NCBI GenBank assembly: GCA_018304505.1
Contig: JAGVWA010000002.1
Coordinates: 16,567-80,566, forward strand
Source: Nanobdellati archaeon
GTDB taxonomy: Archaea > B1Sed10-29 > JAGVWA01
Direction of reading: 5' to 3'
Length of the DNA stretch: 64,000 nt
Shown here one piece after another: positions 1 to 64,000 of the stretch. Within the stretch, counting starts at the first letter, position 1; the number at the start of each line of letters is the position of its first letter. The position numbers and the translations under genes are program-made. Under the pieces are notes generated by a model. It was given only the letters and a program-made list of their open reading frames with translations. It had not been told where the DNA came from and made no database searches.

Positions 1-3000
1 CACTGCACGCAGGAGCAGCTCGCGCGATCAGCAGCGCTAGGGCGTGATAGCAACCTTGTAAGTGAGTGTAAGTATAGCACTTACGGAAATCGATATCAAC
101 CAGGCTCACCAAGTGCTGACAGGGTGACTTGTGTTGCTGCAGGCTCAGATGATGAGTGGACCACGTTTTACGGAGCAGGCAAAGAATTTGTTCCGGGGCA
201 TGGTTTGCTTGACGTAAGCGGAGAAATTAAAAAACCAGCATACGAGGCTAATGACTTCACCAAATTCGAGACAGGCGCGGACCCAAAAGTTTATGGCGAG
301 GGCCGGGGGGCGGTGCTAAATGTCGGAGAGCGGTTTACAAGTGATATAAGCCCATTGCCAGCTGTGCCGAAAATCGATATTAAGAACCTGCAGCTGCTGA
401 TGCCGTACTATGCTAACAGGAGTTCTTTTGATGCCAATATTCTAGAAACACTAGATAAGAACCACCTGACTTACATTAGGCGAACGCAGTTCGTTGAGCC
501 ATTTATTGTCTTGAGAATGAAGAGCATTTTGGAAGAAATGTGGGGCGTGGCTGATTACTACGCAGGTGCAGTACAGCGCCCTGCAGATGCAGACAACTCG
601 AGCCAGTTCAACCGTGTAGTTTCGCTGGACATTTGTAACCCTCAACAAAGGCGGGCTGGCGATGCTTGTGAGCCCTTTGAGTATTACCTTGGCGATGGGG
701 CCTCGTCTTACGATTTGCTGCTGCCGGCCATATACCCAGAAATCATCCCTCCAGTTAATGATGGAGAATCGACAAGAACAATTGTGCACTTTGTGGCAAA
801 CTCAACACCACAGCTGCTTGAGTTAATCCAAAGATTCAACGAGAGCGTCCACGGCATCAGAGGGGCATTGTTTATCCAGACAGGCCAGTTCAATTTGCAG
901 GTGTTGACGCCCGGTGAGGACATCATCAAGGTCAACATGACGGGCATCGATTTAACTAGCAGCACTGTGTTGCAGCGCTTTGCCCAGACACAGCGCGGGG
1001 GCGAAACAGCAAGCCAGCTCGAGATAGAGTTCAGGCCAGGCAGCGTTGCTGACTCGCTGTTCATTGTTTCTGATTGCGCTTTCAAAGAAACATGTGGCGG
1101 CAATAATAACTTGAACCTAGACCTTGAAGCGCTAGTAATCGACAGGCTTAACAACATAACCTTTGGCACAGATAAGCAAGTTGTTTCAGCCGTACCGAAG
1201 GTCAACATGCTGCTGGAAATCCCGCTAGAGCAAGACAAGCCGGAAGAAGCGCTGTTCAAAAACAAGTACGTCGTGCTGGCAGAATCAGTAACAGAGGCTG
1301 AAAACCTCATCAAGAGGTTCATGGGAATCCAATTTAATGATGAGGGGAAGTATGTCTTTGCGCCAATCAAAACCGAAGCCCAGACAATACGATCCATGTC
1401 GGTACAGGTGAATGTCTCGAGGGGCCTGATAGTGAAGGACGTTCCAGAACTCACCTTGTCGGAGTTAGTCAAGTTCATTTTCGACGAGGACGACGATTCT
1501 GACACAAAGAAAGAATCAACGTTTATTCTTAGGTCGTATACGAGAGATGATGTTCGCATAGGGCAGGGTGTATCTGGTGAATGGCAGGGCGCAATTTGGG
1601 GCATTCCCGAAAACGGCGTGTACTCGCGCTTCGTCAACATCACCGCAACAGATTGCATTATTGGAAACCCAATAAACTCTGTTTCGCCTGATTTCCAGGA
1701 CGTGTTTGATTATAATGTGCCTGCTTCAGACCTGGGGAAGATAAACTTCGCATCTGGTGGTGACTCAAATGTGTATGGAAGGAACCCGGCGACTTATACT
1801 GGGCTGGCGTTGCTTACAATTTCACGCAGTACCACAAGAGCGGCTGGGCAGACCTACGAAGTCACTATTGACCCTGTAGAAAGGGAGAAACTGCAACGGT
1901 ATACCATCAGTGAAAGTACAAATTACACTATAAATAGTGTAACCGGGTCTGATGGGTTATTGTGGCAATTCTTCAATAGTACGGGATTAATTGACTCAAG
2001 TGTCATGGATTTGTCATCTTTGAACCCCGACAGCTTCTGCCTGTCGCAGTACCAGAGGGACGTTAGCGTTGCATCTGCAAATAGGATCGCGGTTGGTGCA
2101 CAGGTTGAAACCACAAAAGGTCTACCTGTTGATTCAGCCGATGGCACGATTCTAATAACAGACACTACCCCTTCTGGCACTGGGAAATCATGTGGATTCA
2201 CTGCTTCAAATTATTGTACGTTTGCCCAAGACACCGTAACGAGTTGGGAGGTTACCGGGGATTTCTTTGATAAGTGTGCTACTTTAGGTGTGGGAATAGC
2301 TAATAAAGGGGGGACGGTAACGTTCATTGCAGCGACGACTGCGACTCTTGGTATCTATCCTTTAATATGTGGGGGTGGGGCACTTCTCTCCGAAGGTACA
2401 ATAGAAGCCAAACAATGGGAGGAGGGCACGGCACGAGTAGTGACTGCCGAGTATTGCAGAGTTAATCCAGGGAATGGGGTATTCTACACTCCAACTCAGG
2501 AAAATGAATGCCTTATTCCATATGGGCCTAGTTGCGGCAGTGAACCCGCTAGCGATAACTCGTGCCCCACAGTACCCCCGAGATCCCCAGGAGCCTACTG
2601 CAAGCAAGGATTTACAAAATCTTCTAATGGAAGAGTGTGTTGCCCAGTTGATAAGCCAGCGGCTAGTGATGGTTTTTGCTGCCCAGCAGACAGAACTTAT
2701 AACCCAGAGCAAAACAGGTGCGCATGCACAAATGGTTTCGAGACCGCGAACGGAAATTGCGTTGGCTCGTTGAGTGAGTTAGGGGAACAAGAAAAGCAGC
2801 CGTACTACTATACGGAGTACATGAAGGACGGAAGCACTGCACTCGCAACGGGAATCTTCAAGGGAACGGCACCATTACAACAGCAAGTGACCGCAGTTGC
2901 CGAAACCACGGAAACAGATGTAACAGCTGAAACACCTGCTGGAACCACTAACGGAGTCGTGCTACCCCCCTCCCCCCAAGCGACAAAGAGCTTGATATAT

Positions 3001-15197: not shown

Positions 15198-15272
15198 TCA
15201 GGGCCACTACGCTGCCCGCCGGAAGGTATTTATTTGTAATAGGATTAGTCTTCTATCGTATCATAAAATTCC

Positions 15273-15530
15273 ATGATCATTCACTTAGAGCTTTATACGT
15301 ATACTTCTTCTGATTTGCCTAAAAAGATAGCTATACGGGGCGATGGCAACTTCAATGTCCACGTGCAGTCCGTGGACGACTCATGGAGTGGTGCCATTAG
15401 CTTTAAGCCACGCAACAACAATGAGGTAATAAAAGTGGTTCCGCTTGGGCACCAACGTTATGACATTTACTGCGTGAACCCGTTTTATAGCGGGAGCTGT
15501 GATGTTAAGCAGGTGCGCTTTATTCGATAG
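15273..15530 (+). CDS. truncated member of the secreted 'KGxG..C-x(4-7)-C..EL[ED]I' paralog family (possible gene remnant)
   Basis: 85 aa with no signal peptide. Retains the family C-terminal module IAIRGDGNFNVHVQSVDD...CVNPFYSGSCDVKQVRFIR, closest to 17965/18810. Confidence 0.35.
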   Translation: MIIHLELYTYTSSDLPKKIAIRGDGNFNVHVQSVDDSWSGAISFKPRNNNEVIKVVPLGHQRYDIYCVNPFYSGSCDVKQVRFIR

Positions 15531-15572
15531 CGAATGAAAAGAAAAACGAGACCGTCATTGGCTGTGGCGTTT

Positions 15573-16016
15573 TTAGTAGTCAATGACGTCGAGTTCTCGT
15601 AGTTTGCACTGGAAGTACTTGCTCGTGCACTTTATGAAGAAACCAGTGATTTTCTTGTCGTCTTTAATCTTTGGTGTAACATAGACGCCGGATTTCCTCA
15701 TCTCTACTGGCGTGGTTTCGCCGCTCGTGGTTCCGTCTTCGAAGCGTGTTATTGCCACAAACCACCCGCTGCCGCGGAGTTTGAGCTGGCGCACCCTGTG
15801 CCTTGGCTCGTCGAGTTTTATTTCTAGAATTTGTTTTCTTTTGGTTTGTATCTTTGAGTATGTGCTGATTTTGCCGTCTGAGATTGAAGGCGAGTACACG
15901 CTGTCGCCGGCAGTGGCTGTGTAGCCTACATCAACTGCTAAGGCTGCGGGCACCATTAGTGTAACGGCCAGCAAAAATGCTAGTGCCCTAGTTGAGTTTA
16001 AGTTGAAATTTGTCAT
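15573..16016 (-). CDS. secreted protein, paralog family member (subtype A)
   Basis: Sec signal ..ALAVDVG. C-terminal module LKLRGSGWFVAITRFEDGTTSGETTPVEM..GFFIKCTSKYFQCKLRELDVIDY*. About 55% identical over the C-terminal 90 aa to 22469-22975. Confidence 0.7.
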   Translation of the reverse strand: MTNFNLNSTRALAFLLAVTLMVPAALAVDVGYTATAGDSVYSPSISDGKISTYSKIQTKRKQILEIKLDEPRHRVRQLKLRGSGWFVAITRFEDGTTSGETTPVEMRKSGVYVTPKIKDDKKITGFFIKCTSKYFQCKLRELDVIDY

Positions 16017-16185
16017 CGAATCATCTTAAATATTTATTGCAATTCCGGTATATAAACCTATCGGTTTGGTTATGGTTGTGGGAGAAAAATGCTGTGCTGT
16101 GGGAAATTGGGTATGGAAAAAAGTGCCGTGGGGTGTTAAATGCTGTTGGTGGTCTTTGTTATTAGTGGTGTTGATTATCGTGTTG

Positions 16186-16803
16186 CTATGGGTATATCTC
16201 GAGCTCATATATAAAGCAGGGAAAGTACTTATTAGTGCACTTTATTTCAAATCCATAGTACTGGTATGGCGATAACCCGCTGCTTCCTGTCGCGTCGCGA
16301 ATTGGTGGCACAATGTCTACCCCCCTCTTCTGGTTGGCCTTTACGGGTGTACTTTCGTAGCTTGTGGTAGAAATGCCTGCTCCCTTCGGTCTTTTAGCTG
16401 GATCACTTTTTTCATATTTTGATATGATAACAAACCAGCCGCTGCCTTTTATCCTGACCTTGCTTACTGTCCTGACGGGATTAGTGGCGGGATTACTGAA
16501 GGCGATTGAGAGTGACGAACGTCTCTTCACCGAGAGCAGATACTTGGTGTTCATGTTTCCATCACTGACTGTACTCCGTTTGGCATCTCCCAGACCCCTA
16601 AAAACGTAACTTATGGAGCCAGCGGCAAAGCCCGGTGTGATGGGCTCTTCTTGGGCAAAAATCTGATTGTAAACACTGTCTATGGTTTCATCGGCGAAGC
16701 CTGTGGCAAATGCAGCGACAACGATGATGGCGAGGGCTGCTGTTATGAGTAGGGGTTTGTTTTGAAGGTATTTGGTTATTGTTGCACCCTTTTGTTTTCT
16801 CAT
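16186..16803 (-). CDS. secreted/membrane-anchored protein, paralog family member (subtype B)
   Basis: Signal anchor ..AAFATGFADE. Module VRIKGSGWFVIISKYEK...GFEIKCTNKYFPCFIYELEIYP*. Pairs with 21744-22400 (same GFADE signal end and EIYP* terminus). Confidence 0.7.
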   Translation of the reverse strand: MRKQKGATITKYLQNKPLLITAALAIIVVAAFATGFADETIDSVYNQIFAQEEPITPGFAAGSISYVFRGLGDAKRSTVSDGNMNTKYLLSVKRRSSLSIAFSNPATNPVRTVSKVRIKGSGWFVIISKYEKSDPAKRPKGAGISTTSYESTPVKANQKRGVDIVPPIRDATGSSGLSPYQYYGFEIKCTNKYFPCFIYELEIYP

Positions 16804-16883
16804 ACAAAAAGATAAGTCACTGTGGTATTTATACGTTGCCGTTGTGGCCCTGCAACATGGGGCCGAACAAGTAACTATTAATA

Positions 16884-17804
16884 ATGGTCGCGAGTATGTT
16901 TATAAAGAGGATGTGCATGGAAGACGCAGAGAAGAAACTCGTCTTTAATCATAGCGAGACAAGGGGCCAGGGCTCAATGGAGTACCTGTTCATCATCGCA
17001 GGCGTTTTAGCAGTAGCTGCAATCGCTGTCTTGTTTTTGACAAGCGCGGGATCAGGGGCTGCACAGCAGCAACTAATCACGAATTGCGTCACTTCGGCCA
17101 CAACATGCCAGGCTGCACAGCTCGCGAGTCCGGGAACAACGTGCCTTTCATCATGCGCAAGGTCATGCAGTGACCCCAGAACGGGGATTGATCTGATGTC
17201 CAAGGATTCGGTTTTTGACATCCAAAGAAACAGGCCTGTTGCGTGCCCCCCGGGTTCGGCGTGCAGCCTTTGCGGGCTTGGAAAATCGGATTTAGTTGTA
17301 ACAGCACTAGCAGGGAACAAGCAGGTCGCGGTGCTGTCACCCCTGGTGCCGGAAAGCATCGGCCAAAACCAGCGTACTGCGGTCTCGTGCAACACTAGAA
17401 TAAGGCAGGTCATGTATCCCCTGCAAGGCGACAGGTATTTGCTTTACTACACCGTGGAAATACAAGGAAGAACACCCTTGGTTGATTTTTATGTCATTGA
17501 AAACAAGCCCGCGTCGTTCAATGGCCAATGTGTAGGAATAAACCCGACACAGGCCTACGGCAGCGTCCTGAATTTTATGAGCAACTATGAACAGCAAGAG
17601 GCCTGCGTAACAGAATTAGCCGGGCAAAACCCCCAAAATCCCTTTGCCCCGATACTGGTTTCAACAGCGCAGGCAAACAACCCCGCGGGCGCTATGGTAA
17701 ATCTTGATGAAGCAAACCTCGAATTCACGGTGCTGTACTTCACCCCGGGTTTTGAGCAGGACCTGTCAGATTCAACGCTCGGGTTAGTCATTGGCGGCCG
17801 CTGA
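16884..17804 (+). CDS. type IV pilin-like protein with an archaeal class III signal peptide, Cys-rich
   Basis: ..HSETRG|QGSMEYLFIIAGVLAVAAIAVLFL matches the archaeal prepilin (DUF361-like) motif (Q+1, S+3, E+5, hydrophobic stretch). Shares CxxxxRxCSDPRxGxD and near-identical N-terminal DNA with the pilins at 55369 and 55992. The leader is longer if 16884 is the true start; alternative ATGs at 16911/16917. Confidence 0.75.
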   Translation: MVASMFIKRMCMEDAEKKLVFNHSETRGQGSMEYLFIIAGVLAVAAIAVLFLTSAGSGAAQQQLITNCVTSATTCQAAQLASPGTTCLSSCARSCSDPRTGIDLMSKDSVFDIQRNRPVACPPGSACSLCGLGKSDLVVTALAGNKQVAVLSPLVPESIGQNQRTAVSCNTRIRQVMYPLQGDRYLLYYTVEIQGRTPLVDFYVIENKPASFNGQCVGINPTQAYGSVLNFMSNYEQQEACVTELAGQNPQNPFAPILVSTAQANNPAGAMVNLDEANLEFTVLYFTPGFEQDLSDSTLGLVIGGR

Positions 17805-17964
17805 CACCACTGCCACGGGGCCGTTGTCAGCTGCCATAGTGACGCTGTCAGCTGCTATGGCATGATATTGTAGGCCCGCGGAAAGGTTTTAGAAAGGTTT
17901 ATATATGTATGCTGGTTTGTTATAAAAATAAGGTTCCAAAGGCCAAATAAGCAGAGGTGAAAAA

Positions 17965-18771
17965 ATGGACTTAAGTTCGACTAACACAAAGATCATCATA
18001 GGGGTTTTAGTAGTGGCTGTTTTAGGAGGATACTATTTATTCTTTGATACAAGTACAACACCCGGGACTATTGAGGAGGCCACCATAGTTGGGCCACTGT
18101 CGGAGGATACAATCGGGCCCGGCTTTGCACCCACAACATCTTTTGTTAATTTAACATCTGGCCAAACCGGAACAGCGCCAGGTGGTGTCTCAGTAACCTT
18201 CAGGGCGGGTTCAAAAGTAGGGACGACACTCTACGCAACTTTCGATGTTGGAAGGGTATTGAGTGACGGAACAGCCTACAATTTCACAACTTATGCGATG
18301 TCGCTAAACCAATCGCATGTGAATGAAACCGCAGGGGTGACAGTATCTGTTGTCTCACTCGAAGAGATAAGCCAAGGTGTGTTTAATGTAATGGCAAGAA
18401 TAAGTGTAAGCGAACTTAATGTAAGTGTAAGTGAAGTAAAATTGAAGTACTACAATACATTATCAGGAAACATTAACGATGGTTCTACAGCAACATACAC
18501 GATAATGAGGAGCAGAACAGGTGTTGGCATCAAGCTGTTTACCAATTCCACTGTCAGTAAAATGACAATCAAGGGAAATGGCTACTTCAACGTGCACTCT
18601 AAGTTCACTGATGGGACATGGAGCAAAGCCTACGGCGCGCGCACAGACCCGAAAACATACGAAATCACGTTTACACCACCGTCAAAACCAGGGCAACTCA
18701 TCAGCAACTTTGAGCTATGGTGCAGCTGGAGCAGCGCTTGCAGGATAAATGAATTGGAGATCTACAAGTAA
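17965..18771 (+). CDS. secreted protein, paralog family member (subtype C)
   Basis: N-terminal signal anchor. Module MTIKGNGYFNVHSKFTDGTWS...ELWCSWSSACRINELEIYK*. Confidence 0.65.
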   Translation: MDLSSTNTKIIIGVLVVAVLGGYYLFFDTSTTPGTIEEATIVGPLSEDTIGPGFAPTTSFVNLTSGQTGTAPGGVSVTFRAGSKVGTTLYATFDVGRVLSDGTAYNFTTYAMSLNQSHVNETAGVTVSVVSLEEISQGVFNVMARISVSELNVSVSEVKLKYYNTLSGNINDGSTATYTIMRSRTGVGIKLFTNSTVSKMTIKGNGYFNVHSKFTDGTWSKAYGARTDPKTYEITFTPPSKPGQLISNFELWCSWSSACRINELEIYK

Positions 18772-18809
18772 GCACTAATAACCTATTTCGCAATTTGGGG
18801 AGATCATAA

Positions 18810-19328
18810 ATGCATAAACTGAATATAAAATCGAACACCAAAATCATTATCGGGGCGATAATCGCTCTAGCACTAGTTGCTGGGGTCTTTGTTTATGTTG
18901 ATTCAGGCTCAACGTCAACTGGTTTGACACCCGCGGAACTCGCGGACATAGAGGGGAAGTCTGCGCAGGAAGAATTGCGACCTGGCTATTATCTTAATCC
19001 GGGGCAGGTGCCGTACTATGGAGCACCAACAGCGATCTCAGATCGGAACACGGGCACGATAACCATACTCCGAAGGCGAGAGGGGGTCAAGGCATTAATT
19101 CTTGGCGGGTATGGGGCTCCATCAGTTGCAAAAATAAATGGATATGGTAGATTCAATGTTCATTCACTTTTCAGTGACGGGACTGCCAGCACTGCAGTAG
19201 TAGCAAGCGGGAGCGGTGATGTCACCCTGAAGAAAAAGTCAGGAACAACCATCAAAGGCGTTGAGTTATGGTGCCCTTCGTATTTTGGCAGCCCGTGTGG
19301 GATACGTGAACTTGAACTATACCAGTAG
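18810..19328 (+). CDS. secreted protein, paralog family member (subtype C)
   Basis: N-terminal signal anchor. Module AKINGYGRFNVHSLFSDGTAS...ELWCPSYFGSPCGIRELELYQ*. Confidence 0.65.
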   Translation: MHKLNIKSNTKIIIGAIIALALVAGVFVYVDSGSTSTGLTPAELADIEGKSAQEELRPGYYLNPGQVPYYGAPTAISDRNTGTITILRRREGVKALILGGYGAPSVAKINGYGRFNVHSLFSDGTASTAVVASGSGDVTLKKKSGTTIKGVELWCPSYFGSPCGIRELELYQ

Positions 19329-19384
19329 CTTGCAATGAGTTGCATAATCATCCTTCTAGTTGCATAGCTATTCACCCTGTGCTT

Positions 19385-19861
19385 TTACACCAAGCAAGGC
19401 CTGTACTGCTGCCGTTCTTGTAAGTAGTTCTGCAAGTGCGCAACACTAACTTCTGTAGTCTTGTCATCAAAATCAGTAATCACTATCCTGTCGCCATTCT
19501 CGAAAAACGGCAGCACCAGGGCGGTCTGCCACTCGTCAACGTTTTCAATGTCCCCGCCGGTTTCGAAACTTTCCCCGATTTGTATTGTCGGTACAGAAAA
19601 TCGCTGCTCATAAAGCACATCTCCTGCAGTTGACAAAACCTGTGCATTGTAACCCTGCAAAGCCCGCGGCGTCACGGACGCCTCTGCAACTGCCACGCCA
19701 GGAATCACTAAGCCAGACCCTGTTTTTTCCAAGCCCACGATGTATGATGCAGCGGGCGGGCTGGTTTGTGAAAAACCAAGCGACATCGACGCAACAATAA
19801 GCGACGCGGCCGCGAGAGCCAATATTACCAGCGATGCGTTATTTAGCCATTGTTTTCTCAA
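19385..19861 (-). CDS. secreted hypothetical protein, co-transcribed downstream of the metalloprotease
   Basis: Sec signal [29 protein letters not shown]. Its start overlaps the protease stop (ATGA-type overlap at 19858-19861). Confidence 0.55.
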
Positions 19862-21678
19862 GCATATCCCTCCAAGAGTTTTTCGAGTGCAGCAAAGCTC
19901 GGCGCGTCGAACTTCACCGTAACAAGTTCCGTTGTTTCATTCAGGGTCTGCCTTTGCGGCAGTTCCGCGCCCTCCATTAGCGATTCCCCAATCTCAGGGT
20001 TGTACTCTGCTGGTCGGTACCAGTCGCTGTACATGCAACCTTCGCGGCCATACTTGTCAGTGCTGTAGCAGCCAGTGCCAGGAATGTCATTCCATTTATC
20101 GCAACCCATTGGCGCACAATTCGGGGCATCTTTTAGCCTGCCGTCGCTGGGAAACCCGTATGAGTACTGGTCTGCAAGGTTTATCTGTTCAGGTCCAAAG
20201 GAGTGGCCGAACTCATGTAATGAAATTTCAGGGTACATTGCTGATGCATAAGCATGCGGATTCGCGGTGCCGGCTTGGTTGGGGGTGTTCATTAACACAA
20301 TGATCTCCTCATAGGGGCATATGCTAGCGATCCTGGAAATGGCCTCGTCGTTGCATTTTATTGTGCCACTGCTTTCTATGCAGTCAAGGCCAGCGCCCGA
20401 CAAAACCGTGTGGATGTTGATCTTGCCCGCGTTTTTCTTAAACGGCTCAACACTAACTAAATGGTCTGCGTGTATTTTCGCGTGCTGTTCAAATAGCGCG
20501 GCATTGGCGTATTTGTCGCCAAGGAAAACAATGTCTAGTGGATTGCTTCCTGTGCCCTGGTGCAGCGTTACGCATTCCAGTTCGTTTATTGTAAATGACA
20601 CGGAATCGCTTTGTTTGGTGTTTCCTTCTCGGTCTCTGGCTTCTATAATCATGTGTTTATCCCCAACAGTTGCCTGCACAGAGTCAAAGGTTCCAAGGTA
20701 CAGGCACTTGCCTGCTTTTTCTGATCCATCGATGGCTTTGCTGCGTTCCATTCTCACGTCAAACGTGCCGATTTTGGCGGTAACTGCAGGTACTGAGACG
20801 CATTCAGATTCCCCGGAGCTAGCTAAGTGTAAGACCTCTGTTTGGAGGGTGAAGACCGTTCCTTTTGTACTAGAAGTAGGGTAGATCGAGGTGTCTTTGA
20901 ACTGCGCGTTCGCCGCTATAAATGGGCTGGCCTGAAAACTTGTGAGCGCGAAATAAGCCACCACAGCAGCGGCAATTACCGCGGTGGCAATAAGGATTAT
21001 CTTGATCGTCCTCTTTGCAGCGTCGCTCAGCAGCGGTTTCTTGACTTCCACTTCTGGGGCCTTTAGGGCCTCTGGAACAGGTGCAGGCATCTCGATTTCC
21101 GGCGCTGCTACTGGCACTGGCGCCGGTGCAGGTGTGGGTGTCGGTTGCGGTTCTGTTGGTGTGGGTGTCGGCTCGGGGGTTGGTTCTGGTGTTGGCTCGG
21201 TGGTTGGTTCTGGTGTTGGCTCGGGGGTTGGTTCTGGTGTTGGCTCGGGGGTTGGTTCTGGTGTGGGTTCTGGTTGTGGTGTTGGTTCTGTGGGTGTTGG
21301 TTCTGGGGTCGGGGGTTCCGGCGTCGGGGCTGTTAGTTCTGTTGGTGTCGGTTCTGTTGGGGTTGGTTCTGCTGGTTCCGGTTCTGTTGGGGTTGGTTCT
21401 GCTGGTGTGAGTTTTTCAGGGGGCTGTGGTTCTGGTTCTGTTGGTGTGGGTTCTGGCGTGGAGGGTGTCGGTTCTGGAGTCGGCGCTGACTCCGGTTCTG
21501 TTGGTGTTGGTGTGGGTTCTGTCGGTGTCGGCTCAATTAGCGTGGCTTCTGGCGTTGTAATCTCGCGCTGTTGCCCTTCCCGCGTTTTGGGTTTTTCTTT
21601 CTCGGCTTCATGTTCTGGCTTCTTTTTTTCGCCACCCATGCGTAATGATAACCGTGTTTCATATATTAAAGTATACAA
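19858..21678 (-). CDS. membrane-anchored zinc metalloprotease (HEFGH zincin; M64/IgA-peptidase-like motif) with a ~200-aa N-terminal Pro/Thr/Glu repeat
   Basis: HExxH as LHEFGHSFG followed by LADQY, reminiscent of HEFGHxFxxLxDEY zincins. Single [23 protein letters not shown]. Cys-containing C-terminal domain. The N-terminal (TPEP)n low-complexity region precedes the TM. An alternative internal start at [10 protein letters not shown] just before the TM is possible. Confidence 0.6.
21100..21545. repeat. low-complexity tandem DNA repeat (18-bp period ggttctggtgttggctcg-like) encoding the (E/T)P(T/E)P repeat
   Basis: Visible periodic DNA. The plus-strand Gly/Ser/Val ORFs 20984-21712, 21081-21410 and 21145-21336 are antisense readings of the same repeat. 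Confidence 0.8.
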
Positions 21679-21743
21679 ATCTGCATGGTACCCGCGCGTT
21701 TATATATGTTGAGCTGCTAATATGTTTTAGTTGGTTGAGTGTA

Positions 21744-22400
21744 ATGGCAAGTGCGGTACTTACTCAGGTTTTGGGGCACAAGAAGCCCGTAATAATCGTG
21801 GCATTTGCTTTGGTTCTGGCAGTGGTTTTTGTTAGCGGTTTTGCCGATGAGGCGATTCAGGATGTATCTCGCTCGATTTCAGATGCCTTCGAGCCAGAGG
21901 CTGCACTGACAGCCGGTCATGCACTTGGCACTATTGATTATGAGGTATATATTTATCGTAGTTATGAGCAGTATTATTATTATAAAAACAAGGTTGAGGA
22001 GAAGGAACGGGATTACAATGCTCAATATAATATTATTGATCACAACCTGAAAACTAAGATAAAACTCGAAAACCAGCGGCGAGAAATCCTTAGCCTCAAT
22101 TTCAATAGAAGGAACACACTTAGCAAGGTCAGGATAAAAGGCAGCGGCTGGTTTGTTGTTACGGCCCATTATTATCAATCCAATAGTGGGGCTGTAAAAG
22201 ATCCGTCTTCAATTGATCGGCGTTTATTTACTCTTAGCGGCGAAACGACTCCTGTAAAGGCAAGCAAGAAAGGGGTAGATATTGACCCTGTACAAAACAC
22301 AATTACGCCTGTGGGGGTGATATACTTTCAATCAGTCGAGGTTTATTGTACTAGTAAGTACTTTGACTGTACGATCTACGGCATAGAGATATACCCATGA
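21744..22400 (+). CDS. secreted/membrane-anchored protein, paralog family member (subtype B)
   Basis: First ATG after the protease gene. The track start 21645 overlaps the protease CDS. Signal anchor ..VVFVSGFADE. Module VRIKGSGWFVVTAHYYQSN...VEVYCTSKYFDCTIYGIEIYP*. Confidence 0.7.
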   Translation: MASAVLTQVLGHKKPVIIVAFALVLAVVFVSGFADEAIQDVSRSISDAFEPEAALTAGHALGTIDYEVYIYRSYEQYYYYKNKVEEKERDYNAQYNIIDHNLKTKIKLENQRREILSLNFNRRNTLSKVRIKGSGWFVVTAHYYQSNSGAVKDPSSIDRRLFTLSGETTPVKASKKGVDIDPVQNTITPVGVIYFQSVEVYCTSKYFDCTIYGIEIYP

Positions 22401-22468
22401 AATGCCCACTCGTTAGGCACAGGCAAAGGTTTATATACCCAATTTGCAATAAATATTGAAGGTGATTT

Positions 22469-22975
22469 ATGATGAAAGTCAATGGAAAATCTTCAAAAGT
22501 CGGAAGGCTAATGCTGACTGCATTGGTGGTTTTAGGGCTACTGATGCCAATCGGAGTGCCGCAGCAAACCCCACAAGGAACGCATGACGGCAGCCAATAC
22601 CCTGAGCTAAGCTTTGCGTCGAAGATCAACTTTCAGGTCATCGCGGGCGACGAATACATGACCAAAAAGATCACTGATGGAAGCAAATGGACATACGCCA
22701 AGATCCAGAAAAAGCGACGCCAGAAGGTGGAGGTTCACTTTGATGAGCCGCAGGCCAATGTTACGTCAGTAAAAATCAAGGGCAGCGGCAAGTATGTCGT
22801 ACTAACGCGCTATGAAGACAGCAGCTCAAGCGGCGAAACAAAGACTATAAAAGCCAAGGGTAAGGGCGTTGTTGTTGTTCCAAAATCGGAAAGCGGCAAG
22901 AAAATCGACGGCATCTTCATAAAATGCACCAACAAGGTCTTCAGTTGTAAGCTAAAGGAACTCGAGATCAACTGA
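22469..22975 (+). CDS. secreted protein, paralog family member (subtype A)
   Basis: Sec signal. WTYAKIQKKRRQKVEVHFDEP..VKIKGSGKYVVLTRYEDSSSSGETKTIKAKG..IFIKCTNKVFSCKLKELEIN*. Confidence 0.7.
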   Translation: MMKVNGKSSKVGRLMLTALVVLGLLMPIGVPQQTPQGTHDGSQYPELSFASKINFQVIAGDEYMTKKITDGSKWTYAKIQKKRRQKVEVHFDEPQANVTSVKIKGSGKYVVLTRYEDSSSSGETKTIKAKGKGVVVVPKSESGKKIDGIFIKCTNKVFSCKLKELEIN

Positions 22976-23106
22976 TTACGCAACCTGGGGCTCCATTTCC
23001 TTTTTCAGCCCCATTTCCTTTTTATTTCACAATGCACTGATATTAGTAATGGAAATATTAGTAACAACTGTGAAGCGTTATCCAGAAACGCGCGGAAGGA
23101 AATTCA

Positions 23107-58174: not shown

Positions 58175-61100
58175 ATGACGGCCGTACGAAACATCAATGA
58201 GTCGCGTGGACAGTTGTCACTTGAAGTTCTTGTTATTCTAGCTGTCGGCCTAGTGTCAGCGGCCCTCGTCGGCGTGTTCGCGTCAAACTTAATCAGCATC
58301 AGCGAGGGCATCGAGGCCCAGACCGAGGCCTTTGGGGGCGTCGTAGCCGAGACACTGGAGCAGCCAGAGTTCGAGCGGGCACAGCAGTTTCTCCCTGACT
58401 TGACGATTACGGAAAACATCCGGTTTGTTTCGGCAGCGGAAACAGCTGCCGCAGCCGCAGAAAGTGGGGTCATTGGCAGTGCACTTGTTGAAGTAGGGGA
58501 AATAAAAGCCAGTGAGTCGGCAACACTAACACTGACACAAGATCAGGCAACGCAGACAGGCATCAGCGAAATCACAATCAGTGCAGCAAATCAAATCCCG
58601 GACAGGTCACAGGTTACCGTGCAAAAGTTCTCAGACAAACCGGCAACGCTCGCAATCGCGCCGCTGGCTGTGCAAGAAGACGCTGCAATACCCGTGTATG
58701 CGTACCTCGAAATCACAGCAGTGGGCTTCACAAACAATGATGTTGAAGAGGCCACCATCAAGTTCCAAGTAGAAAAAGCGTGGCTCACAGAGAACGGTTT
58801 GTCTGACGCCCAAATCGTGCTGAGCAGGTTCTCTGGTGATGCATGGGCTGAACTGCCGACAACAGTTGTTACTCCAGACGACACTCAGGACGATACGTAT
58901 GTATATTATAGTGCGGTCTCTCCTGGCTTCAGCACCTTCGCGATCACGCCACAGGCGCCAGTACGTCCATCGTCAGTAGTCCCGGTTGCGTTGTGGCAGT
59001 TTAACGGCAACAGCCGTGCTGACTCTACAGGCCAGGCTGGCCAGGTCATTGGCGGGAATCTTGTGTCTGGGCGTTTTGCTGGTGGCCTTGAGTTAACTTC
59101 AGGTAGTGCGACCTTGAATTCAGACTGGTTTTCATCAAGTGGTAGTATAGAGCTTTGGTTTAAGCCTTCGTTGGAATACTCGCCGAGTAGTCCTGCATCT
59201 CAGAGAGCCTATCTTTTTAGTGGTTTTGAAGAGTCTCCTGTTGCCTGGATCCGTGAAGTTAACAATAATCCGGGTGTGTTGTCTGTGTGCATCAAAAACA
59301 CAGCTGGCCAGAATGCATGTGTGAATTCACAGACAAAAGCATGGCTTAAAGGCAGGTGGTATCATCTGGCGGTCACTTGGGAAGGTATTGGTACCACGGG
59401 GATTTTAAAGGTATACGTGAATGGCGTGCTTGAATCTGAGAATCGAAATGCTGGCGTGCCTAAAGCGGGCAGTGTACCTAATAATAAATGGCAATTGGGC
59501 AGAGGCTATGGCGAAACAAAGCCAATAAAGGCTGTGTTTGACGAAGTCGGCATTTACAATGTCGTGAAAAGCACCACTGAGATAGCGGAAGACGCGGCTG
59601 CACACGTGGAGTATGTTTATGTTGCTCCGAGCCTTCCACTTTTAAACGCCGCGCCTGAGCGGGATTTACAAAACCCAGAAATCGAGTTTGCCACGATTCA
59701 GGGAAGCAACGTCTACCTATCCCCCGCAGCTTCCTTCATAAGCACGCCGACACTGCCATCGATTTCAGAATTCACTGATGTAGATCATTTGTTGTCTACG
59801 CAGCTCGGTATCTTCAATTCTTTGACGAAGTTCTATGTTGCTAAATACACAACAGTACAGGGGTTCAAGAGAATCGAGGGATATTACAAGGTGCCGGATT
59901 CAACAGCATCATATCCTTTGTACATTGACCTCAATGGAGACGACTTGGCAGACTATTGGTTTTCGAGGAGCGGAATCGCAAATTGGTATAATAGGTACTG
60001 TGCAAGGACAGACAGGACAGGCTCCTGGCTGTATGGTAGCTCGGCAGGGCTTAAGACCGAACACAATTGTGAACAAGGTAGCGTAGTGACTAATATGGCT
60101 GATAACTATGCTTTTAAATTCCACATAACAACGCGTGACGAGATAAGGGTATCAACAGGGCTGGCAGGCACAGATCCGCTGAAAGACAAAATGACGAATG
60201 CAGTGACGCTGTCTATTCAAGCGCCGCCAACAGCAGGGGAGGTTGCAGAACCTATGCCCTCGAAGCCTGTCGACACCTGCGTTGCAAGTACACTTTCAAC
60301 TATTGCCCCGAATGAGATTAAGGAAAGGGCAGTATTAACACTTGATGGCAGCAAGGATGACTTTGATTGCGCTGACAGGTATAGTTTACAGGGTGATGCC
60401 GATGCACAAAGAAAAATCTACGTTGCTAGGGCAGCTAACACTCGCAAGACCCACGTGCACTTTGACGCGGACATTAATGAACTAAACAACTTTGTGTTGG
60501 CACACGCGTACATTGACATTGACAATGACAACACTGCAGACATTGATATGATGAAGCAATTCTCAAGGTCGCAGGTAACTTCTGGCGGGCAGACAAGCAC
60601 AACAGAACGCACCCTGTACTCAATCAGCTGCTTTAATGCCCGGGCAACTACAAAATGGGAGGTTGGGAACTGCGCAGACCGGGGAGTACAACATACCCAA
60701 ACGGGCGTCAGTTCAGACAAGCCCATAGAAGCCAGTTTCGAACCCAGGTTTCCTTCAATAAAAATAGCTACACAAGAACCGTCAAACATTCAAAGCCCGA
60801 TTCTCAGGGGCACGGTTTATGAATTCTTAACTGGCGTACGAGCTGTTGTAGAGCAGGTGGTTTCAAGGGACATTGTTTCTGCTTCAGCCACCCTGAATTT
60901 GCTGACCACGCTTAACGCGCCGAAGGACTTTAAACTCACCACCCCAATTGCAGGCTTCACTGCAACGTCAGTAAAATCAATAAGCATATCGTCAAGCAAA
61001 CAGTTGTCTCCAGGAAGCATAACCATAGAAAAATTATCCCGCATGCCGGCTGGCCTAACAGACCCCGGGCTAGACAACATCTTTACCAGGCTGTCGATCA

Positions 61101-64000
61101 CTAGCCAGGGCTTTTACATTGCAGACGTTACCCAGGCGACGCTTGAATTCGACATACCCAAGACTTGGCTACAAGCTAATATACCGAGGACTTGGCTACA
61201 AGCTAATAATGCAGGGTCACAAGCCATTTCTGTTTATCGGTATGAGGTAGATAAGTGGACAGAATACAAAGCTGAATTGGTTTCACAAGACATAGCAACA
61301 GCGTCCTTCAAAGCTGTGTTGCCCGGCTTATCAGTGCTCGTCATTGGGGAACGCACAGTACCAACAGCACCTGCAGCTCCAACAGAAGCAGAACCTGCAG
61401 CAGAGGAGCCTGAAGTGCCAGCAGTTACAGCACCTGCAGTAGGCACAGCAGTATCAGCAACGCCGCGCGGTGAACCCATTTCAGGGAACCTTGAATTCGA
61501 TGTGTACAACATCGGCAGGGTTGATTATCCGCCAACGCGGCTGCCAGTGTTAGCAGCTTCTTCCAAGCCCCGGGTTTTGCAATACCCCCAAATCGGTTTC
61601 CAAACCCCTGCGCAAACAACTCCAGAGCTTACTGTAAGCGACTACACCAAAATCCAGGATGCCTTGGCGCTGGAGCAAAACACATTTTCAGAGCAAGAAC
61701 TCATTATTGCCGCGCAGTACGCGAAGCAAAAATGCACCGAAACAGGGGCCCTTGGACCGAGCGTATCAGTAATCAATACGCCATTCACCAACCTTAACGA
61801 CTTGGCAGGTCCAAGAAACGGTGAGGCTAGCTGGTACATAACCAATACAGGCAGCACTGCTGCTACAGGCGTGCAGATAAAAATCGACGTTAGGGTATTC
61901 TTTGATGGAGGCAGGACCTTTACAGCAATAGAAAAGAGGGACGTCCCTGCAGGGCAAACCATTGTCATAAACCTTGCGGATCCATCAATATTATATAGGA
62001 TAACTCCAAGCGGCTCCCCAGTTCGGTGGAGTGATATGTTAACAACCCTCAGGGGAATAGACACTGTTACTATGACAGCCACAGTAGCAAATGACCCGAA
62101 CCAAAATGACAACAGGGGCACAGCGAAACTAACCTCAACGTCACCCTACACCTGGCAACTAACCTCGCCAGACTTCAACACTCAGGTGGCTTCGACAGTG
62201 CAAGTTGATTACTGTCGGTACCAGCCGCTGTTGCTCGTTGCAATTTTAAAAAGCCCTGACCAATACGGCTTTAACTTAGAATCTTTCCTGCAGCAGCGCG
62301 TGGCAGAGCAACTCATAACGCAGGCAGAAATCGTTGTGCCCGGCCGTGGAGCCCTTGTAGACGCCTCACTGTACACCGCAGAGTGCTACGCAGAGCTGCC
62401 GTTGTTGACAGAAGAAGGAGGGGCAGAAACAACAGACGAAGGGCAAGCGCAGTCCAGTGCGGTTTGCCAGGGCCAGCCAATAGCGTCAGTGCGTGTTCCT
62501 TCGACACAAGCAGGCACGTTCAACACGTTGAGAATGCAGAACCTCGAGCTATATACAGGGCAGGACTACGTGCTTGTTGTGGACCCCCAAGATGGTTTGG
62601 TTGAGTCAAGGGAAGACAACAACGCCATTCGATTTAAAGGCGCAGACCTTGTGGCGCTAAGACCTGTCGAGGCGCCATTAATTAGCCTGCCGCGGGAAAT
62701 AATCGACATACTTCTGCCGCCGACAGCAGGCGCAGTAGGCGACGTCACGGTAGGCAGCTTCGACACAGCAACATCGTATCAACTCAACGACCCCTTCGGC
62801 GGCGCGTACTCGATTGCCTCGCTGGATGCGAAAATCGCGTCGTTGCAGGGTGTTCTGTTGCGCACTGAGGACTTATCCTTTACCCGTGCTGCAGGGGAGA
62901 ACATCCAGGATCTTGTATTTCAGGATAATATGCTATCCATGCCCGTCAAGCCATCAGCGCTGCCCCAGGGAATTGACACCACATCTTTTTTCTATGTTAA
63001 CTCAGCATGGCAGCGGGACAGCTATGGATTGCAGTTTATAGACAAGTCACAGCAAGGCGTTTCTGACGGGCTGAGTAAAATAGATTACTCAGGGCTCGGA
63101 ATACAGGATATACATTTCAGTGACCCGAATAACGGCGTGATTGGGGGGTTGATTATATCAGGTGGAAATACATATGCAATGCTTGCAATTACTGAAACAG
63201 GTGGTGACGATTGGGTAATTTACTTGGTCCGTGAAGCGGCAACACATACGGTTCTTGTAGGTCACAGTTTAGGCAAGCCAGTTGCCTTGCTTTCAGACAG
63301 CCGCCTAGTCTACATTGAGGACGGCAAGGTCAAGAAATCAATAGACTTGGCAAATCTCGGCGGCGGATTTGACATGATGGCCACATCGAGCACGGATGTA
63401 TATCTTGGGGAAAAAGCCACAGGCAAGGTTTACAAAATCAGCGCGCTTGACGCAACGCAGGCAAAACTTGATTATCAAGCAGTGCAGTCAAATGCAGAAT
63501 CGCTAGCTGGATTGGCGGGAGCGCGTGGGCTGTTCGCAAGTGATGATCGTGACATTGGTTATCCTATAATAGAGTTCCAATTTCCTTCTCTGTCAACAGG
63601 AAGACGCATTGTTGACACCAGCGCTCAACAAACCACCACGCTAGGCGCGCAGCGCACACTTGTCGCGAACTCAAAGAAGCGCGACAACGCGATCCTCGTT
63701 TTGAACAACGTGAAATCAACAGGCGGAACGCGAATTACGGGCTACACAGTTCGATTGAAGGACTCTACCAAGATCCTCGCCTCGGGCCTCGCGTTGCAGC
63801 CCTCGATTTCGCAATTACTAATATCACTGCCATTGCAGGCCGTCGAATTCAACAGCCAGGGTATTACTGATCAGCCCTTGCAGATCACGTTCCAGCAGGA
63901 GAACGGCGCAACCACAACCATTGATGGGCCGAAGGTGTACGACATCGCTAAGGACACAAGGTCCAAGGCTGCCCTGGATTTGCTTGAGCGCGACATTAGC
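58175..64000 (+). CDS. giant (>1940 aa, 3'-partial) pilin-like surface protein with class III signal peptide and a LamG/concanavalin-A-like jelly-roll domain
   Basis: ATG at 58175, then MTAVRNINESRG|QLSLEVLVILAVGLVSAALVGVFA (Q+1, S+3, E+5 pilin motif). LamG-type motifs SDWFSSSGSIELWFKPS...YLFSG...WYHLAVTWEG...LKVYVNGVL. Frame 2 was read by hand with no stop through position 64000. The track lists only short artefactual ORFs in the other frames. Confidence 0.65.
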   Translation, partial: MTAVRNINESRGQLSLEVLVILAVGLVSAALVGVFASNLISISEGIEAQTEAFGGVVAETLEQPEFERAQQFLPDLTITENIRFVSAAETAAAAAESGVIGSALVEVGEIKASESATLTLTQDQATQTGISEITISAANQIPDRSQVTVQKFSDKPATLAIAPLAVQEDAAIPVYAYLEITAVGFTNNDVEEATIKFQVEKAWLTENGLSDAQIVLSRFSGDAWAELPTTVVTPDDTQDDTYVYYSAVSPGFSTFAITPQAPVRPSSVVPVALWQFNGNSRADSTGQAGQVIGGNLVSGRFAGGLELTSGSATLNSDWFSSSGSIELWFKPSLEYSPSSPASQRAYLFSGFEESPVAWIREVNNNPGVLSVCIKNTAGQNACVNSQTKAWLKGRWYHLAVTWEGIGTTGILKVYVNGVLESENRNAGVPKAGSVPNNKWQLGRGYGETKPIKAVFDEVGIYNVVKSTTEIAEDAAAHVEYVYVAPSLPLLNAAPERDLQNPEIEFATIQGSNVYLSPAASFISTPTLPSISEFTDVDHLLSTQLGIFNSLTKFYVAKYTTVQGFKRIEGYYKVPDSTASYPLYIDLNGDDLADYWFSRSGIANWYNRYCARTDRTGSWLYGSSAGLKTEHNCEQGSVVTNMADNYAFKFHITTRDEIRVSTGLAGTDPLKDKMTNAVTLSIQAPPTAGEVAEPMPSKPVDTCVASTLSTIAPNEIKERAVLTLDGSKDDFDCADRYSLQGDADAQRKIYVARAANTRKTHVHFDADINELNNFVLAHAYIDIDNDNTADIDMMKQFSRSQVTSGGQTSTTERTLYSISCFNARATTKWEVGNCADRGVQHTQTGVSSDKPIEASFEPRFPSIKIATQEPSNIQSPILRGTVYEFLTGVRAVVEQVVSRDIVSASATLNLLTTLNAPKDFKLTTPIAGFTATSVKSISISSSKQLSPGSITIEKLSRMPAGLTDPGLDNIFTRLSITSQGFYIADVTQATLEFDIPKTWLQANIPRTWLQANNAGSQAISVYRYEVDKWTEYKAELVSQDIATASFKAVLPGLSVLVIGERTVPTAPAAPTEAEPAAEEPEVPAVTAPAVGTAVSATPRGEPISGNLEFDVYNIGRVDYPPTRLPVLAASSKPRVLQYPQIGFQTPAQTTPELTVSDYTKIQDALALEQNTFSEQELIIAAQYAKQKCTETGALGPSVSVINTPFTNLNDLAGPRNGEASWYITNTGSTAATGVQIKIDVRVFFDGGRTFTAIEKRDVPAGQTIVINLADPSILYRITPSGSPVRWSDMLTTLRGIDTVTMTATVANDPNQNDNRGTAKLTSTSPYTWQLTSPDFNTQVASTVQVDYCRYQPLLLVAILKSPDQYGFNLESFLQQRVAEQLITQAEIVVPGRGALVDASLYTAECYAELPLLTEEGGAETTDEGQAQSSAVCQGQPIASVRVPSTQAGTFNTLRMQNLELYTGQDYVLVVDPQDGLVESREDNNAIRFKGADLVALRPVEAPLISLPREIIDILLPPTAGAVGDVTVGSFDTATSYQLNDPFGGAYSIASLDAKIASLQGVLLRTEDLSFTRAAGENIQDLVFQDNMLSMPVKPSALPQGIDTTSFFYVNSAWQRDSYGLQFIDKSQQGVSDGLSKIDYSGLGIQDIHFSDPNNGVIGGLIISGGNTYAMLAITETGGDDWVIYLVREAATHTVLVGHSLGKPVALLSDSRLVYIEDGKVKKSIDLANLGGGFDMMATSSTDVYLGEKATGKVYKISALDATQAKLDYQAVQSNAESLAGLAGARGLFASDDRDIGYPIIEFQFPSLSTGRRIVDTSAQQTTTLGAQRTLVANSKKRDNAILVLNNVKSTGGTRITGYTVRLKDSTKILASGLALQPSISQLLISLPLQAVEFNSQGITDQPLQITFQQENGATTTIDGPKVYDIAKDTRSKAALDLLERDIS

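Follow-up and report, generated by a model that had tools for sequence, protein, structure and literature searches.

Introduction

What kind of protease does this archaeal locus encode, what is the small secreted protein whose gene overlaps its end, and is the proline-rich repeat in front of its membrane helix made as protein at all? These questions follow from an original prediction for the window, by which we mean the whole stretch of 64,000 nucleotides that was analysed. It described a membrane zincin with an unusual repetitive N-terminus and a cognate partner. To our knowledge, what is known of M64 peptidases comes from just two bacterial enzymes, both studied for cleaving IgA. Our literature search found no paper on archaeal M64.

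Results

Organisation of the locus

The features of the locus are listed in Table 1. The protease and partner genes would form a two-gene operon of a DPANN archaeon. As first described, a 606-aa zincin ORF and a downstream, overlapping ORF for a secreted 158-aa protein are both present in the sequence. The longer ORF (19858-21678, minus strand) holds up as a reading frame but not in its start, which is a TTG upstream of a TATA-like box. The first ATG (21639-21637) gives 593 aa. The partner ORF and the protease stop share 4 nt (TTGA). Shine-Dalgarno (SD) sequences of the GGAGGG type found ahead of the partner also precede other genes of the window.

Table 1. Coordinates of the protease and partner genes and of their predicted parts within the window.
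Feature	Position	Strand	Description
Protease CDS, 593 aa + stop	19858..21639	minus	tail, TM helix, beta-sandwich, M64-like catalytic domain
Partner CDS, 158 aa	19385..19861	minus	signal peptide + 7-stranded beta-sandwich (predicted)
Shine-Dalgarno GGAGGG	19868..19873	minus	6 nt 5' of the partner TTG start, within the protease 3' end
TATA-like box TTAATATA	21662..21669	minus	ends 22 nt 5' of the first ATG; one mismatch from TTTAWATA
N-terminal tail, residues 1-211	21007..21639	minus	Lys/Glu-rich head, then TPEP-type repeats
Repeat core, residues 36-183	21091..21534	minus	TRF periods 12/24 bp, short 18- and 30-bp stretches
Internal alternative starts GTG 21117, ATG 21090, GTG 21051	21049..21117 (span)	minus	none with TATA-like box or SD
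Single TM helix or signal anchor, residues 212-235	20935..21006	minus	N-in by the positive-inside rule
Protease's own beta-sandwich, residues about 245-360	20560..20907	minus	AF2 block, pLDDT mostly 80-95
M64-like catalytic domain, residues about 368-593	19861..20538	minus	Pfam, PDB sequence matches, alignment, AF2, Foldseek
Active-site motif (His, Glu, His, then Asp, Tyr)	20164..20217	minus	invariant in five clade members

The flanking family of paralogs is real, with 6-7 members at 15.2-23.0 kb. No member was found in the loci of relatives, and the neighbour in one of these (L003) aligned unconvincingly. With the family missing from every relative's locus, we rejected a link to the protease. 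The earlier proposal that the protease processes these paralogs thus has no comparative support.

A divergent M64-type zincin

Pfam PF09471 (Peptidase_M64) matched the window protease with 28.8 bits (E 8.9e-7), at profile positions 98-163 only. This score barely exceeds the cut-off of 26. The closest relatives (P0002 and P0003) reached 38-42 bits. Sequence matches in the PDB were 3p1v and 4df9 (E 1e-6), which align the HEFGHSFG..LADxY motif. We also compared folds, using Foldseek and an AF2 model (pLDDT 67, and below 50 in the region past the HExxH helix). The best 13 PDB matches were chains of 4df9, 9qdi and 3p1v, with E from 9e-9 to 3e-7, probability 1.0 and TM-scores of about 0.33. Four entries for the Thomasclavelia ramosa IgA protease ranked lower, with E of about 1e-3. 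As judged by sequence matches and modelled fold together, the window protease is an M64-type zincin in fold and active-site residues, and the assignment is significant against chance. This bears out the zincin reminiscent of M64 that had been read from the motif: the profile match lies above its cut-off and the PDB and Foldseek matches are M64. The HExxH region, whose failure to align with any metalloprotease domain was to have counted against that reading, aligns to 3p1v and 4df9.

In the M64 motif, HEXXHXXXGXXD, the two His and the Asp bind zinc and the Glu is the general base (PMC12402451). We transferred these roles to the window protease from that study. The His, Glu, His and Asp residues and the next Tyr are all present, but Pro replaces the Gly and the Asp lies 4 residues farther on. 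HMMER aligns the active site to 3p1v/4df9 with a 4-residue insertion before the Asp ligand. The structural zinc site, comprising a Glu after the Asp ligand and three Cys that include a C-terminal CxxC (ThomasA E551/C606/C616/C619; BF3526 E323/C398/C409/C412), is absent from the window protease. Here, a Gln occupies the position after the Asp (LADQY), and Cys is missing from the C-terminal helix. The C-terminal CxxC is present in P0006, P0009, P0010 and L090, and missing in P0007, P0008 and L088. By the sequence criteria of the insertion and the missing structural zinc site, the window protease is a divergent M64 subtype.

The best matches in both sequence and fold are BF3526 of Bacteroides fragilis and BACOVA_00663 of B. 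ovatus (PDB 4DF9, 9QDI and 3P1V). Like the window protease, these place a beta-sandwich before a catalytic domain with the HEFGHSFG helix, the Asp ligand and the next Tyr. Identity is only 16-17%, and the two differ from the window protease in the 4-residue insertion, in the Gly (now Pro) between helix and Asp, and in having the Glu+3Cys site in place of Gln after Asp and no CxxC. Where they have a lipoprotein signal, the window protein has an archaeal type II membrane anchor. It also has a 211-aa N-terminal tail, which they do not. The accessory domain fused in BF3526 and BACOVA_00663 is a separate gene in the window, and the window protease's own beta-sandwich is unrelated to their M64_N domain. 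ThomasA/IgAse of Thomasclavelia (Clostridium) ramosa, the M64 founding member (9QDH, 9QA6, 9I4Z, 9EKK), shares the catalytic fold and residues. ThomasA is a 137-kDa multidomain sortase-anchored Gram-positive protein recognising IgA Fab (PMC12402451). Nothing suggests an antibody substrate for the window protease.

Topology of the protease

A single hydrophobic segment (Kyte-Doolittle maximum 2.7) was found in the protease. It aligns with the N-terminal hydrophobic helix of homologs, and in every relative the same domains follow a short N-terminal signal or anchor. Five Lys/Arg residues flank the segment on its N-terminal side, compared to one on the C-terminal side. The tail lacks Cys altogether, compared to 10 Cys in the protease's C-terminal part. 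We predict from these features that the catalytic domain is outside the cell, in agreement with the original prediction, and that the tail, if translated, is cytoplasmic. Since there is only one TM helix, tail and catalytic domain would lie on opposite sides of the membrane.

The AF2 block corresponding to the protease's own beta-sandwich dips in pLDDT near residue 120 of the model. An origin of this domain by duplication, from the partner or from M64_N, was rejected (hhalign 0.5% and 0.3%, respectively). A class III (type IV pilin-like) signal peptide was also rejected. Neither the MQ(K/R)GQAFDAFK peptide of homologs nor the N-terminal peptides of the window protein had a Pfam or NCBIfam match; Pilin_N gave E 1.4 for the window N-terminal segment and Class_IIIsignal did not match. 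Signals of this class carry Gly or Ala at position -1 of the cleavage site; the window protein has Pro where homologs have Gly in this region. The neighbouring gene 16884-17804 matches PF04021 and served as positive control for this search.

The partner is related to a fused accessory domain

The partner has a signal-peptide-like N-terminus. Its AF2 model (pLDDT 72) had no significant neighbour in the PDB. The partner sequence retrieved only itself, both in a word-index search and in a full phmmer search over 1.84 billion representatives; a word-index search with an 8-sequence partner alignment added only P0012. A profile of partner-type domains found no match among PDB sequences. No Pfam model, M64_N (PF16217) included, matched the partner or any one of 8 related domains when E was relaxed to 10. 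Informative relatives came from synteny combined with local hmmsearch of fetched loci.

The syntenic gene of L003 matched the partner by BLASTP (E 2e-6). Directly 3' of an M64-like gene, a free-standing partner gene is found in at least six other lineages (L003, L009, L088, L091, L093 and L123). Most free-standing partners have their own C-terminal membrane anchor. Elsewhere, the partner-type domain is fused: it is N-terminal to the catalytic domain in L010, L011, L095 and L052, and C-terminal to it in L090 (one contig). Aligned by hhalign, the free-standing partners and the N-terminal domains fused to M64 scored 98.2% (E 3.8e-14). These profile comparisons show the partner to be homologous to the accessory beta-sandwich domain fused to the M64-like catalytic domain in relatives, among both archaea and bacteria. 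The gene pair is conserved in at least seven loci, including the window, and fused in others. The fused M64-like proteins of L010 (Bathyarchaeota), L011 (Woesearchaeota), P0006, P0009, P0010 and L090 contain the same two modules as the window in one polypeptide, with the accessory module N-terminal in most and C-terminal in L090. Conversely, the window and six loci encode the modules as two overlapping or adjacent genes.

In BF3526 and BACOVA_00663, the accessory beta-sandwich (M64_N) lies beside the active site; the partner-type domain bears a weak resemblance to it. We compared partner-type domains with 105 Bacteroidota-type N-terminal domains, one of which was checked as PF16217. The fused partner-type domains aligned with these collinearly over 102 columns, a weak match (hhalign 49.8%, E 1.7e-4). 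All eight partner-type domains together scored 33.7% and the free partners alone 3.1%.

What had been proposed for the partner was a cognate protein that might be an inhibitor, chaperone or substrate. Its cognate nature is supported by the conservation of the pair in at least seven loci and by the fusions elsewhere. Being homologous to the fused accessory domain, the partner is not an inhibitor or substrate of unknown kind. Most likely, judging by this homology and by analogy with the BF3526 N-terminal domain, the partner is a detached accessory or gating subunit.

It might instead act in trans as an inhibitor or folding chaperone, a pro-domain imposing latency until removed rather than a permanent gating subunit. 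The 4-nt overlap and the partner's own SD suggest coupled stoichiometric expression, which fits a cognate inhibitor or chaperone. In BF3526, the catalytic domain was not expressible without the N-terminal domain, whose loss unleashed non-specific proteolysis (PMC12402451). However, relatives permanently fuse the domain at either end of the catalytic domain, and most free-standing partners have a C-terminal membrane anchor; both observations fit a stable subunit better. We consider a trans-acting inhibitor or chaperone unlikely. This explanation and that of a detached subunit are not cleanly separable.

Translation probably starts at the first ATG

In five other genes of the window, a canonical box ends 21-24 nt 5' of the ATG; these genes belong to the leaderless class. 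The box consensus used here, TTTAWATA, comes from the window itself. The only TATA-like boxes of the operon are at 21662-21679. On the minus strand between 19385 and 21661 we found no second box with one mismatch or fewer. No SD of the GGAGG/GGTGA type precedes any of the three internal starts, unlike the partner gene. A TATA-like box at leaderless distance, with no promoter or SD before the internal starts, favours translation of the tail. The tail frame also scores best of the six by codon usage, and both the repeat periods and the indel between two assemblies are multiples of 3, as would suit a coding sequence. Hence, we consider it likely that the tail is translated from the first ATG. The original prediction had allowed that a promoter or start signal might place translation after the repeat. 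None was seen; the TATA-like boxes of the operon lie 5' of the first ATG.

The main alternative is that the repeat is untranslated. The protein would then start at GTG 21051, ATG 21090 or GTG 21117 (residues 197, 184 and 175 of the long form), and the 550-590 nt upstream would be a repetitive 5' leader or spacer, open by chance. With an internal start, the topology oddity disappears. The tail is absent from all relatives, in which at most 20 residues precede the TM helix. A start at GTG 21051 would give a family-typical N-terminus, aligning with the MQKGQAFDAFK peptide and TM helix of homologs. GTG 21117 is the start chosen by metagenome gene callers (419 aa). Furthermore, about 10% of mononucleotide shuffles of the repeat are also open, so the open frame is not significant alone. 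Set against this, with one of the operon's TATA-like boxes at leaderless distance, a 5'-terminal in-frame AUG with no later stop would read into the protease. The internal starts lack the SD that is clear for the partner. A non-coding tail would leave a gap of about 600 nt, unique in a compact locus where other intergenic gaps are 38-160 nt. Finally, Pro in the repeat is encoded by all four codons, so that the repeat is more regular as protein than as DNA. An untranslated repeat is therefore a tentative alternative, less probable than a start at the first ATG.

Composition and variation of the tail

The tail is 33% Pro, 20% Thr and 19% Glu, with a net charge of -28. No other Pro-rich tract was found within the window. 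TRF reported a 24-bp repeat (4.2 copies, 96% matches, 21164-21264) and a 12-bp repeat (9.2 copies), and every reported period was a multiple of 3. The acidic Pro/Thr/Glu tail was correctly described at the outset; its 18-bp period was not, as TRF finds mainly 24 and 12 bp. The repeat was also expected to be length-polymorphic. This is so: it was assembled independently twice, and the two assemblies differ by one 24-nt (8-codon) indel and 2 substitutions. A third contig breaks inside the repeat. A metagenome scan for close relatives of the protease, made for tail comparison, found none, and an alignment-based scan found distant ones only.

The sense strand of the repeat is only 4% T, which accounts for the open frames among its shuffles. 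By codon usage, the tail frame is the best of six and is in frame with the protease. Measured against a genome background, its codon log-likelihood is positive, but a local background makes all six frames negative. The repeats shift phase, and self-lag mismatch counts per codon position were therefore uninformative.

Pro/Thr linkers, such as the IgA1 hinge, cellulase PT linkers and the Thr-rich stalks of archaeal S-layers, are extracellular and usually glycosylated. The window tail is like these surface-protein linkers in composition and expected disorder. Unlike them, it precedes the only TM helix, lacks a signal peptide and is predicted to be cytoplasmic.

A location outside the cell would allow another role. 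If the tail were exported (charge-driven N-tail export), or met the catalytic domain in trans between cells or vesicles, it could be a tethered Thr-Pro-rich pseudo-substrate, pro-peptide or decoy. Repeat number would then tune latency and the detached subunit would control access. We know of no zincin for which such a zymogen mechanism has been described. Disordered acidic tails favour N-tail translocation in bacteria, and the window tail is TPEP-rich, disordered and strongly acidic. M64 enzymes cut Pro/Thr/Ser-rich hinges, BF3526 at S-T|P-P and ThomasA at the IgA hinge (PMC12402451). However, the one TM helix separates tail and catalytic domain across the membrane, the charges on its flanks indicate that the tail is inside, there is no N-terminal signal peptide and no relative has such a tail. 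We therefore regard a pseudo-substrate as very improbable.

Least credible of all is that the true gene in the repeat is antisense, either a Gly/Val/Ser-rich ORF at 20984-21712 (plus strand) or one of the small ORFs of the metagenome annotation, which are 84-92 and 44 aa long. The Gly/Val/Ser-rich frame has no stop either, but its codon usage is -0.39 per codon compared to +0.26 for the protease frame. It also runs across the divergent promoter region and the conserved stretch of the protease gene that codes for the TM helix, and missing stops are a trivial result of low-complexity sequence.

Discussion

On balance, the sequence comparisons and models lead us to favour, with moderate confidence, an outward-facing membrane-anchored M64-type zinc metallopeptidase with a separately secreted, detached accessory domain that associates with it outside the cell, and with a tail translated from a leaderless message. 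Transcription of the operon would be driven by the TATA-like box 22 nt 5' of the first ATG and give a leaderless mRNA. The protease would be anchored by its single N-terminal helix with the catalytic domain facing outward. The tail would be kept in the cytoplasm as a disordered, lineage-specific and length-variable extension, perhaps a spacer or bristle. The partner would be secreted separately and join the protease outside the cell.

The N-terminal domain of BF3526 sits beside the active site and narrows access to it; the enzyme is limited to flexible Pro/Thr-rich peptide ends and cuts S-T|P-P (PMC12402451). By analogy, the partner may wall or gate the active-site cleft of the window protease. 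If so, the enzyme would probably act on proline-rich linker peptides that are exposed on surface or environmental proteins.

A translated tail would be a rare example of a PT-type linker that faces the cytoplasm in a prokaryotic membrane protein, confined to one lineage and perhaps functionless. More broadly, the locus and its relatives show that small DPANN-type archaea have a conserved form of the enzyme made by two genes, in which the accessory beta-sandwich is separate and usually membrane-anchored. Other lineages, with the accessory domain fused to one or the other end of the catalytic domain, offer a natural "Rosetta stone" for the interaction, and give a testable model of active-site access. 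In organisms living attached to other cells, proline-rich surface linkers are possible substrates.

An M64-like protease that departs from the canonical family

The first ATG of the protease gene is at position 21639, giving a product of 593 residues. The original prediction was correct overall for the protease and its partner; the exceptions are the start codon and the repeat period. A 211-residue tail is followed by the sole hydrophobic segment (residues 212–235), with five K/R residues before it and one after. The remaining 358 residues include 10 Cys. The closest homologs are from Candidatus Diapherotrites/Iainarchaeum MAGs, and a 112.9 kb metagenome contig (L170) carries the identical locus.

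Scores against Pfam Peptidase_M64 were 28.8 bits for the protease (cut-off 26) and 38–42 bits for its nearest relatives. In a phmmer search of PDB sequences, only the two Bacteroides M64 structures matched, and their active-site motif aligned with that of the protease. In an AF2 model built from 10 sequences (pLDDT 67), the TM helix was accompanied by a beta-sandwich predicted with confidence and by a catalytic domain of alpha/beta type. When PDB was searched with this model using Foldseek, the first 13 matches were chains of BF3526 and BACOVA_00663 (E about 1e-8). Entries for the T. ramosa IgA protease ranked after these. The predicted zincin of M64 type is borne out, as a divergent subtype.

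Briefly, a 2025 structural paper takes three features to define M64. These are the motif HEXXHXXXGXXD, a Tyr that follows Asp-Glu and touches the scissile carbonyl, and a second zinc site with a structural role, formed by that Glu and three Cys (PMC12402451). Both His, the Glu, the Asp and the Tyr are invariant throughout the window clade. However, Pro replaces Gly, the Asp sits four residues farther from the helix, and the structural zinc site is absent, with the C-terminal CxxC found in no clade member. The residue after the Asp ligand is Gln in the window protease; some clade members keep Glu. Hence, on sequence grounds, we file the protease as an M64-like subtype rather than a canonical member.

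The beta-sandwich within the protease itself is related neither to the partner nor to M64_N (Pfam PF16217), the N-terminal domain of BF3526. In two of the homologs, P0002 (residues 98–136) and P0003 (residues 96–130), this sandwich bears the motif YDDGKHxDGKxxDC, a match to 'choice-of-anchor X' that stays under threshold (NCBIfam NF041940, 16–19 bits, cut-off 25). This motif is lost in the window protease.

The partner as a candidate detached subunit

The partner ORF (158 aa) starts at TTG, with a GGAGGG Shine-Dalgarno (SD) sequence 6 nt ahead; one public source lists this protein under a 'DPANN group archaeon' MAG. The partner matched nothing in Pfam or NCBIfam, and sequence searches recovered a single relative besides the partner itself. 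Further relatives were found through synteny and a local profile search. The stop codon of the Iainarchaeum protease homolog is overlapped by 4 nt by a 170-aa gene, which is related to the window partner (24% identity, E 2e-6). Loci L009 and L088 share the arrangement, and the local profile search added L091, L093 and L123 to those with a downstream partner-type gene. In most free-standing partners a signal peptide precedes the beta-rich domain and a TM anchor follows it at the C-terminus; the window and L123 copies have no such anchor. These two have a Cys near the C-terminus (..YRPCLV, window 19385-19405 (-); ..ATPCRIQ, L123 709-1158 (+)), where a Cys-rich segment stands instead in the anchored copies of L090 and L091. 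Through this Cys the partner might be disulfide-bonded to the protease.

Partner-type domains were also found fused to M64-like proteases. They immediately precede the M64-like catalytic domain in L010 (Bathyarchaeota), L011 (Woesearchaeota), L095 and L052, and in proteins P0006, P0009 and P0010 (two of the three labelled bacterial by their source). Profile-profile comparison linked free-standing and fused copies (98.2% probability, E 3.8e-14). The L090 fusion has 610 codons stop-to-stop and 606 aa from its first Met. It runs from a TM anchor through a beta-sandwich, a canonical M64 domain (with CxxC), the partner-type domain and a Cys-rich segment to a C-terminal TM anchor, so its modules follow the gene order of the window pair. 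Because fusions occur at both ends and the gene pair is conserved, there is strong comparative evidence that the partner acts together with the M64-like domain at the membrane's outer face. The downstream product had been proposed as a cognate inhibitor, chaperone or substrate; the pair and the fusions uphold a cognate partner, most likely as a detached accessory subunit.

Fused partner-type copies bear a weak resemblance to the Bacteroidota M64_N domain (hhalign 49.8%, E 1.7e-4), collinear across 102 columns; free partners alone gave 3%. The AF2 model of the partner is a 7-stranded sandwich (pLDDT 72), and had no significant neighbour among PDB structures. In BF3526, which cleaves at S-T|P-P, the active site is walled on one side by the N-terminal domain (PMC12402451). 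Without it, the catalytic domain cannot be expressed, and the restricted enzyme becomes non-specific (PMC12402451). By analogy with this domain, we infer that the partner would be a detached subunit gating or stabilising the protease.

Genomic surroundings

Features of the window and of the L090 contig (small-protein paralogs belong to the cluster at 15267-23000)
Feature	Coordinates	Strand	Remarks
Protease ORF	19858-21678	-	606 aa counted from TTG
Partner ORF	19385-19861	-	4-nt overlap with protease stop
Paralog	15573-16016	-	small protein
Paralog	16186-16803	-	small protein
Paralog	17965-18771	+	small protein
Paralog	18810-19328	+	small protein
Paralog	21744-22400	+	small protein
Paralog	22469-22975	+	small protein
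Paralog (weak match)	frame opening at 15267	+	
Class III (archaeal pilin-like) signal-peptide protein	16884-17804	+	306 aa; PF04021, 32.5 bits
Very long ORF	58175-64000	+	>1,940 codons; runs off window end
L090 fusion ORF	412-2244	+	metagenome contig Ga0066637_10034572

A paralog family flanks the pair, with six members that are clear and a seventh that is weak, all lying between 15.2 and 23.0 kb. They share an N-terminal membrane anchor and, at the C-terminus, a conserved two-Cys domain of some 90 aa (KIKGxGxFxV ... ELWCxxxxxxCxIxELEIY). The family matched nothing in Pfam or NCBIfam. No paralog was found at any locus of the protease's relatives, where the neighbours are unrelated genes. The suggestion that the protease processes the paralogs thus finds no support in comparative context. 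Judged by gene order, it is the pair of protease and partner that is conserved. A class III signal-peptide gene sits mid cluster, and the whole group may encode a surface structure. That gene marks the window as archaeal, as do those for a DNA polymerase of family B and a methionine aminopeptidase of archaeal type. A canonical TTTAAATA box precedes the start of the very long ORF by 24 nt, with leaderless geometry; the ORF may encode a giant surface protein. Such proteins are common in DPANN genomes.

The N-terminal tail

The tail is rich in P (33%), T (20%) and E (19%), has a net charge of -28 and lacks Cys. All relatives lack it, with about 20 or fewer residues ahead of the anchor. Hence, by comparison, it is a lineage-specific addition.

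Promoters in the window have TTTAWATA boxes, which in five genes end 21–24 nt before the ATG (leaderless class). The protease box, TTAATATA, ends 22 nt before ATG 21639. On the minus strand, from 21661 to the operon end, there was no box with ≤1 mismatch. Alternatively, the tail may go untranslated, with synthesis starting at an internal codon. Metagenome gene callers place the start at GTG 21117, and with GTG 21051 as the start codon the N-terminus would be typical of the family. However, neither these codons nor ATG 21090 has an SD like that before the partner and other genes. An untranslated tail would also leave about 600 nt non-coding, whereas neighbouring intergenic gaps are only 38–160 nt. 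By codon usage the protease frame ranks first of six across the tail, and all four Pro codons are used; tail codon scores are ambiguous against local background. The sense strand is just 4.1% T and, therefore, the frame stays open in about 10% of shuffles. Box geometry, the lack of an internal box or SD, codon frame, Pro codons and gap length together make translation of the tail the likelier outcome, with real room for doubt.

If translated, the tail is probably cytoplasmic, since there is a single TM helix with asymmetric flanking charges. The Cys-rich domain is predicted outside the cell and to be secreted in all relatives. The topology originally proposed therefore holds, provided the tail is made.

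The antisense strand of the repeat is also open and Gly/Val/Ser-rich (window 20984-21712 (+)). Metagenome annotation places two small ORFs there, of 44 aa and 84 or 92 aa (L001 9582-9986 (-); L170 2302-2730 (-)), probably artefacts of low-complexity sequence.

In the repeat, periods of 12 and 24 bp predominate (24-bp array: 4.2 copies, 96% matches). The 18-bp period first proposed spans just 38 nt. Every period reported is a multiple of three. Between two assemblies the repeat differs by one 24-nt unit and two substitutions, and a third contig (71 kb; L002/L171 position 1, ERZ27254845 k141_2749304) breaks off within the TPEP repeat, 193 nt upstream of the position at which the protease start was called. 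Hence, the repeat is either length-variable, as expected, or hard to assemble. Because short-read assembly breaks at the repeat, copy numbers from assemblies are uncertain.

We conclude that the locus encodes a putative M64-like ectoprotease with a predicted detached accessory subunit. The TPEP tail, unique to the window lineage, is probably translated and cytoplasmic. The arrangement of protease and detached subunit appears conserved in several small archaeal lineages.
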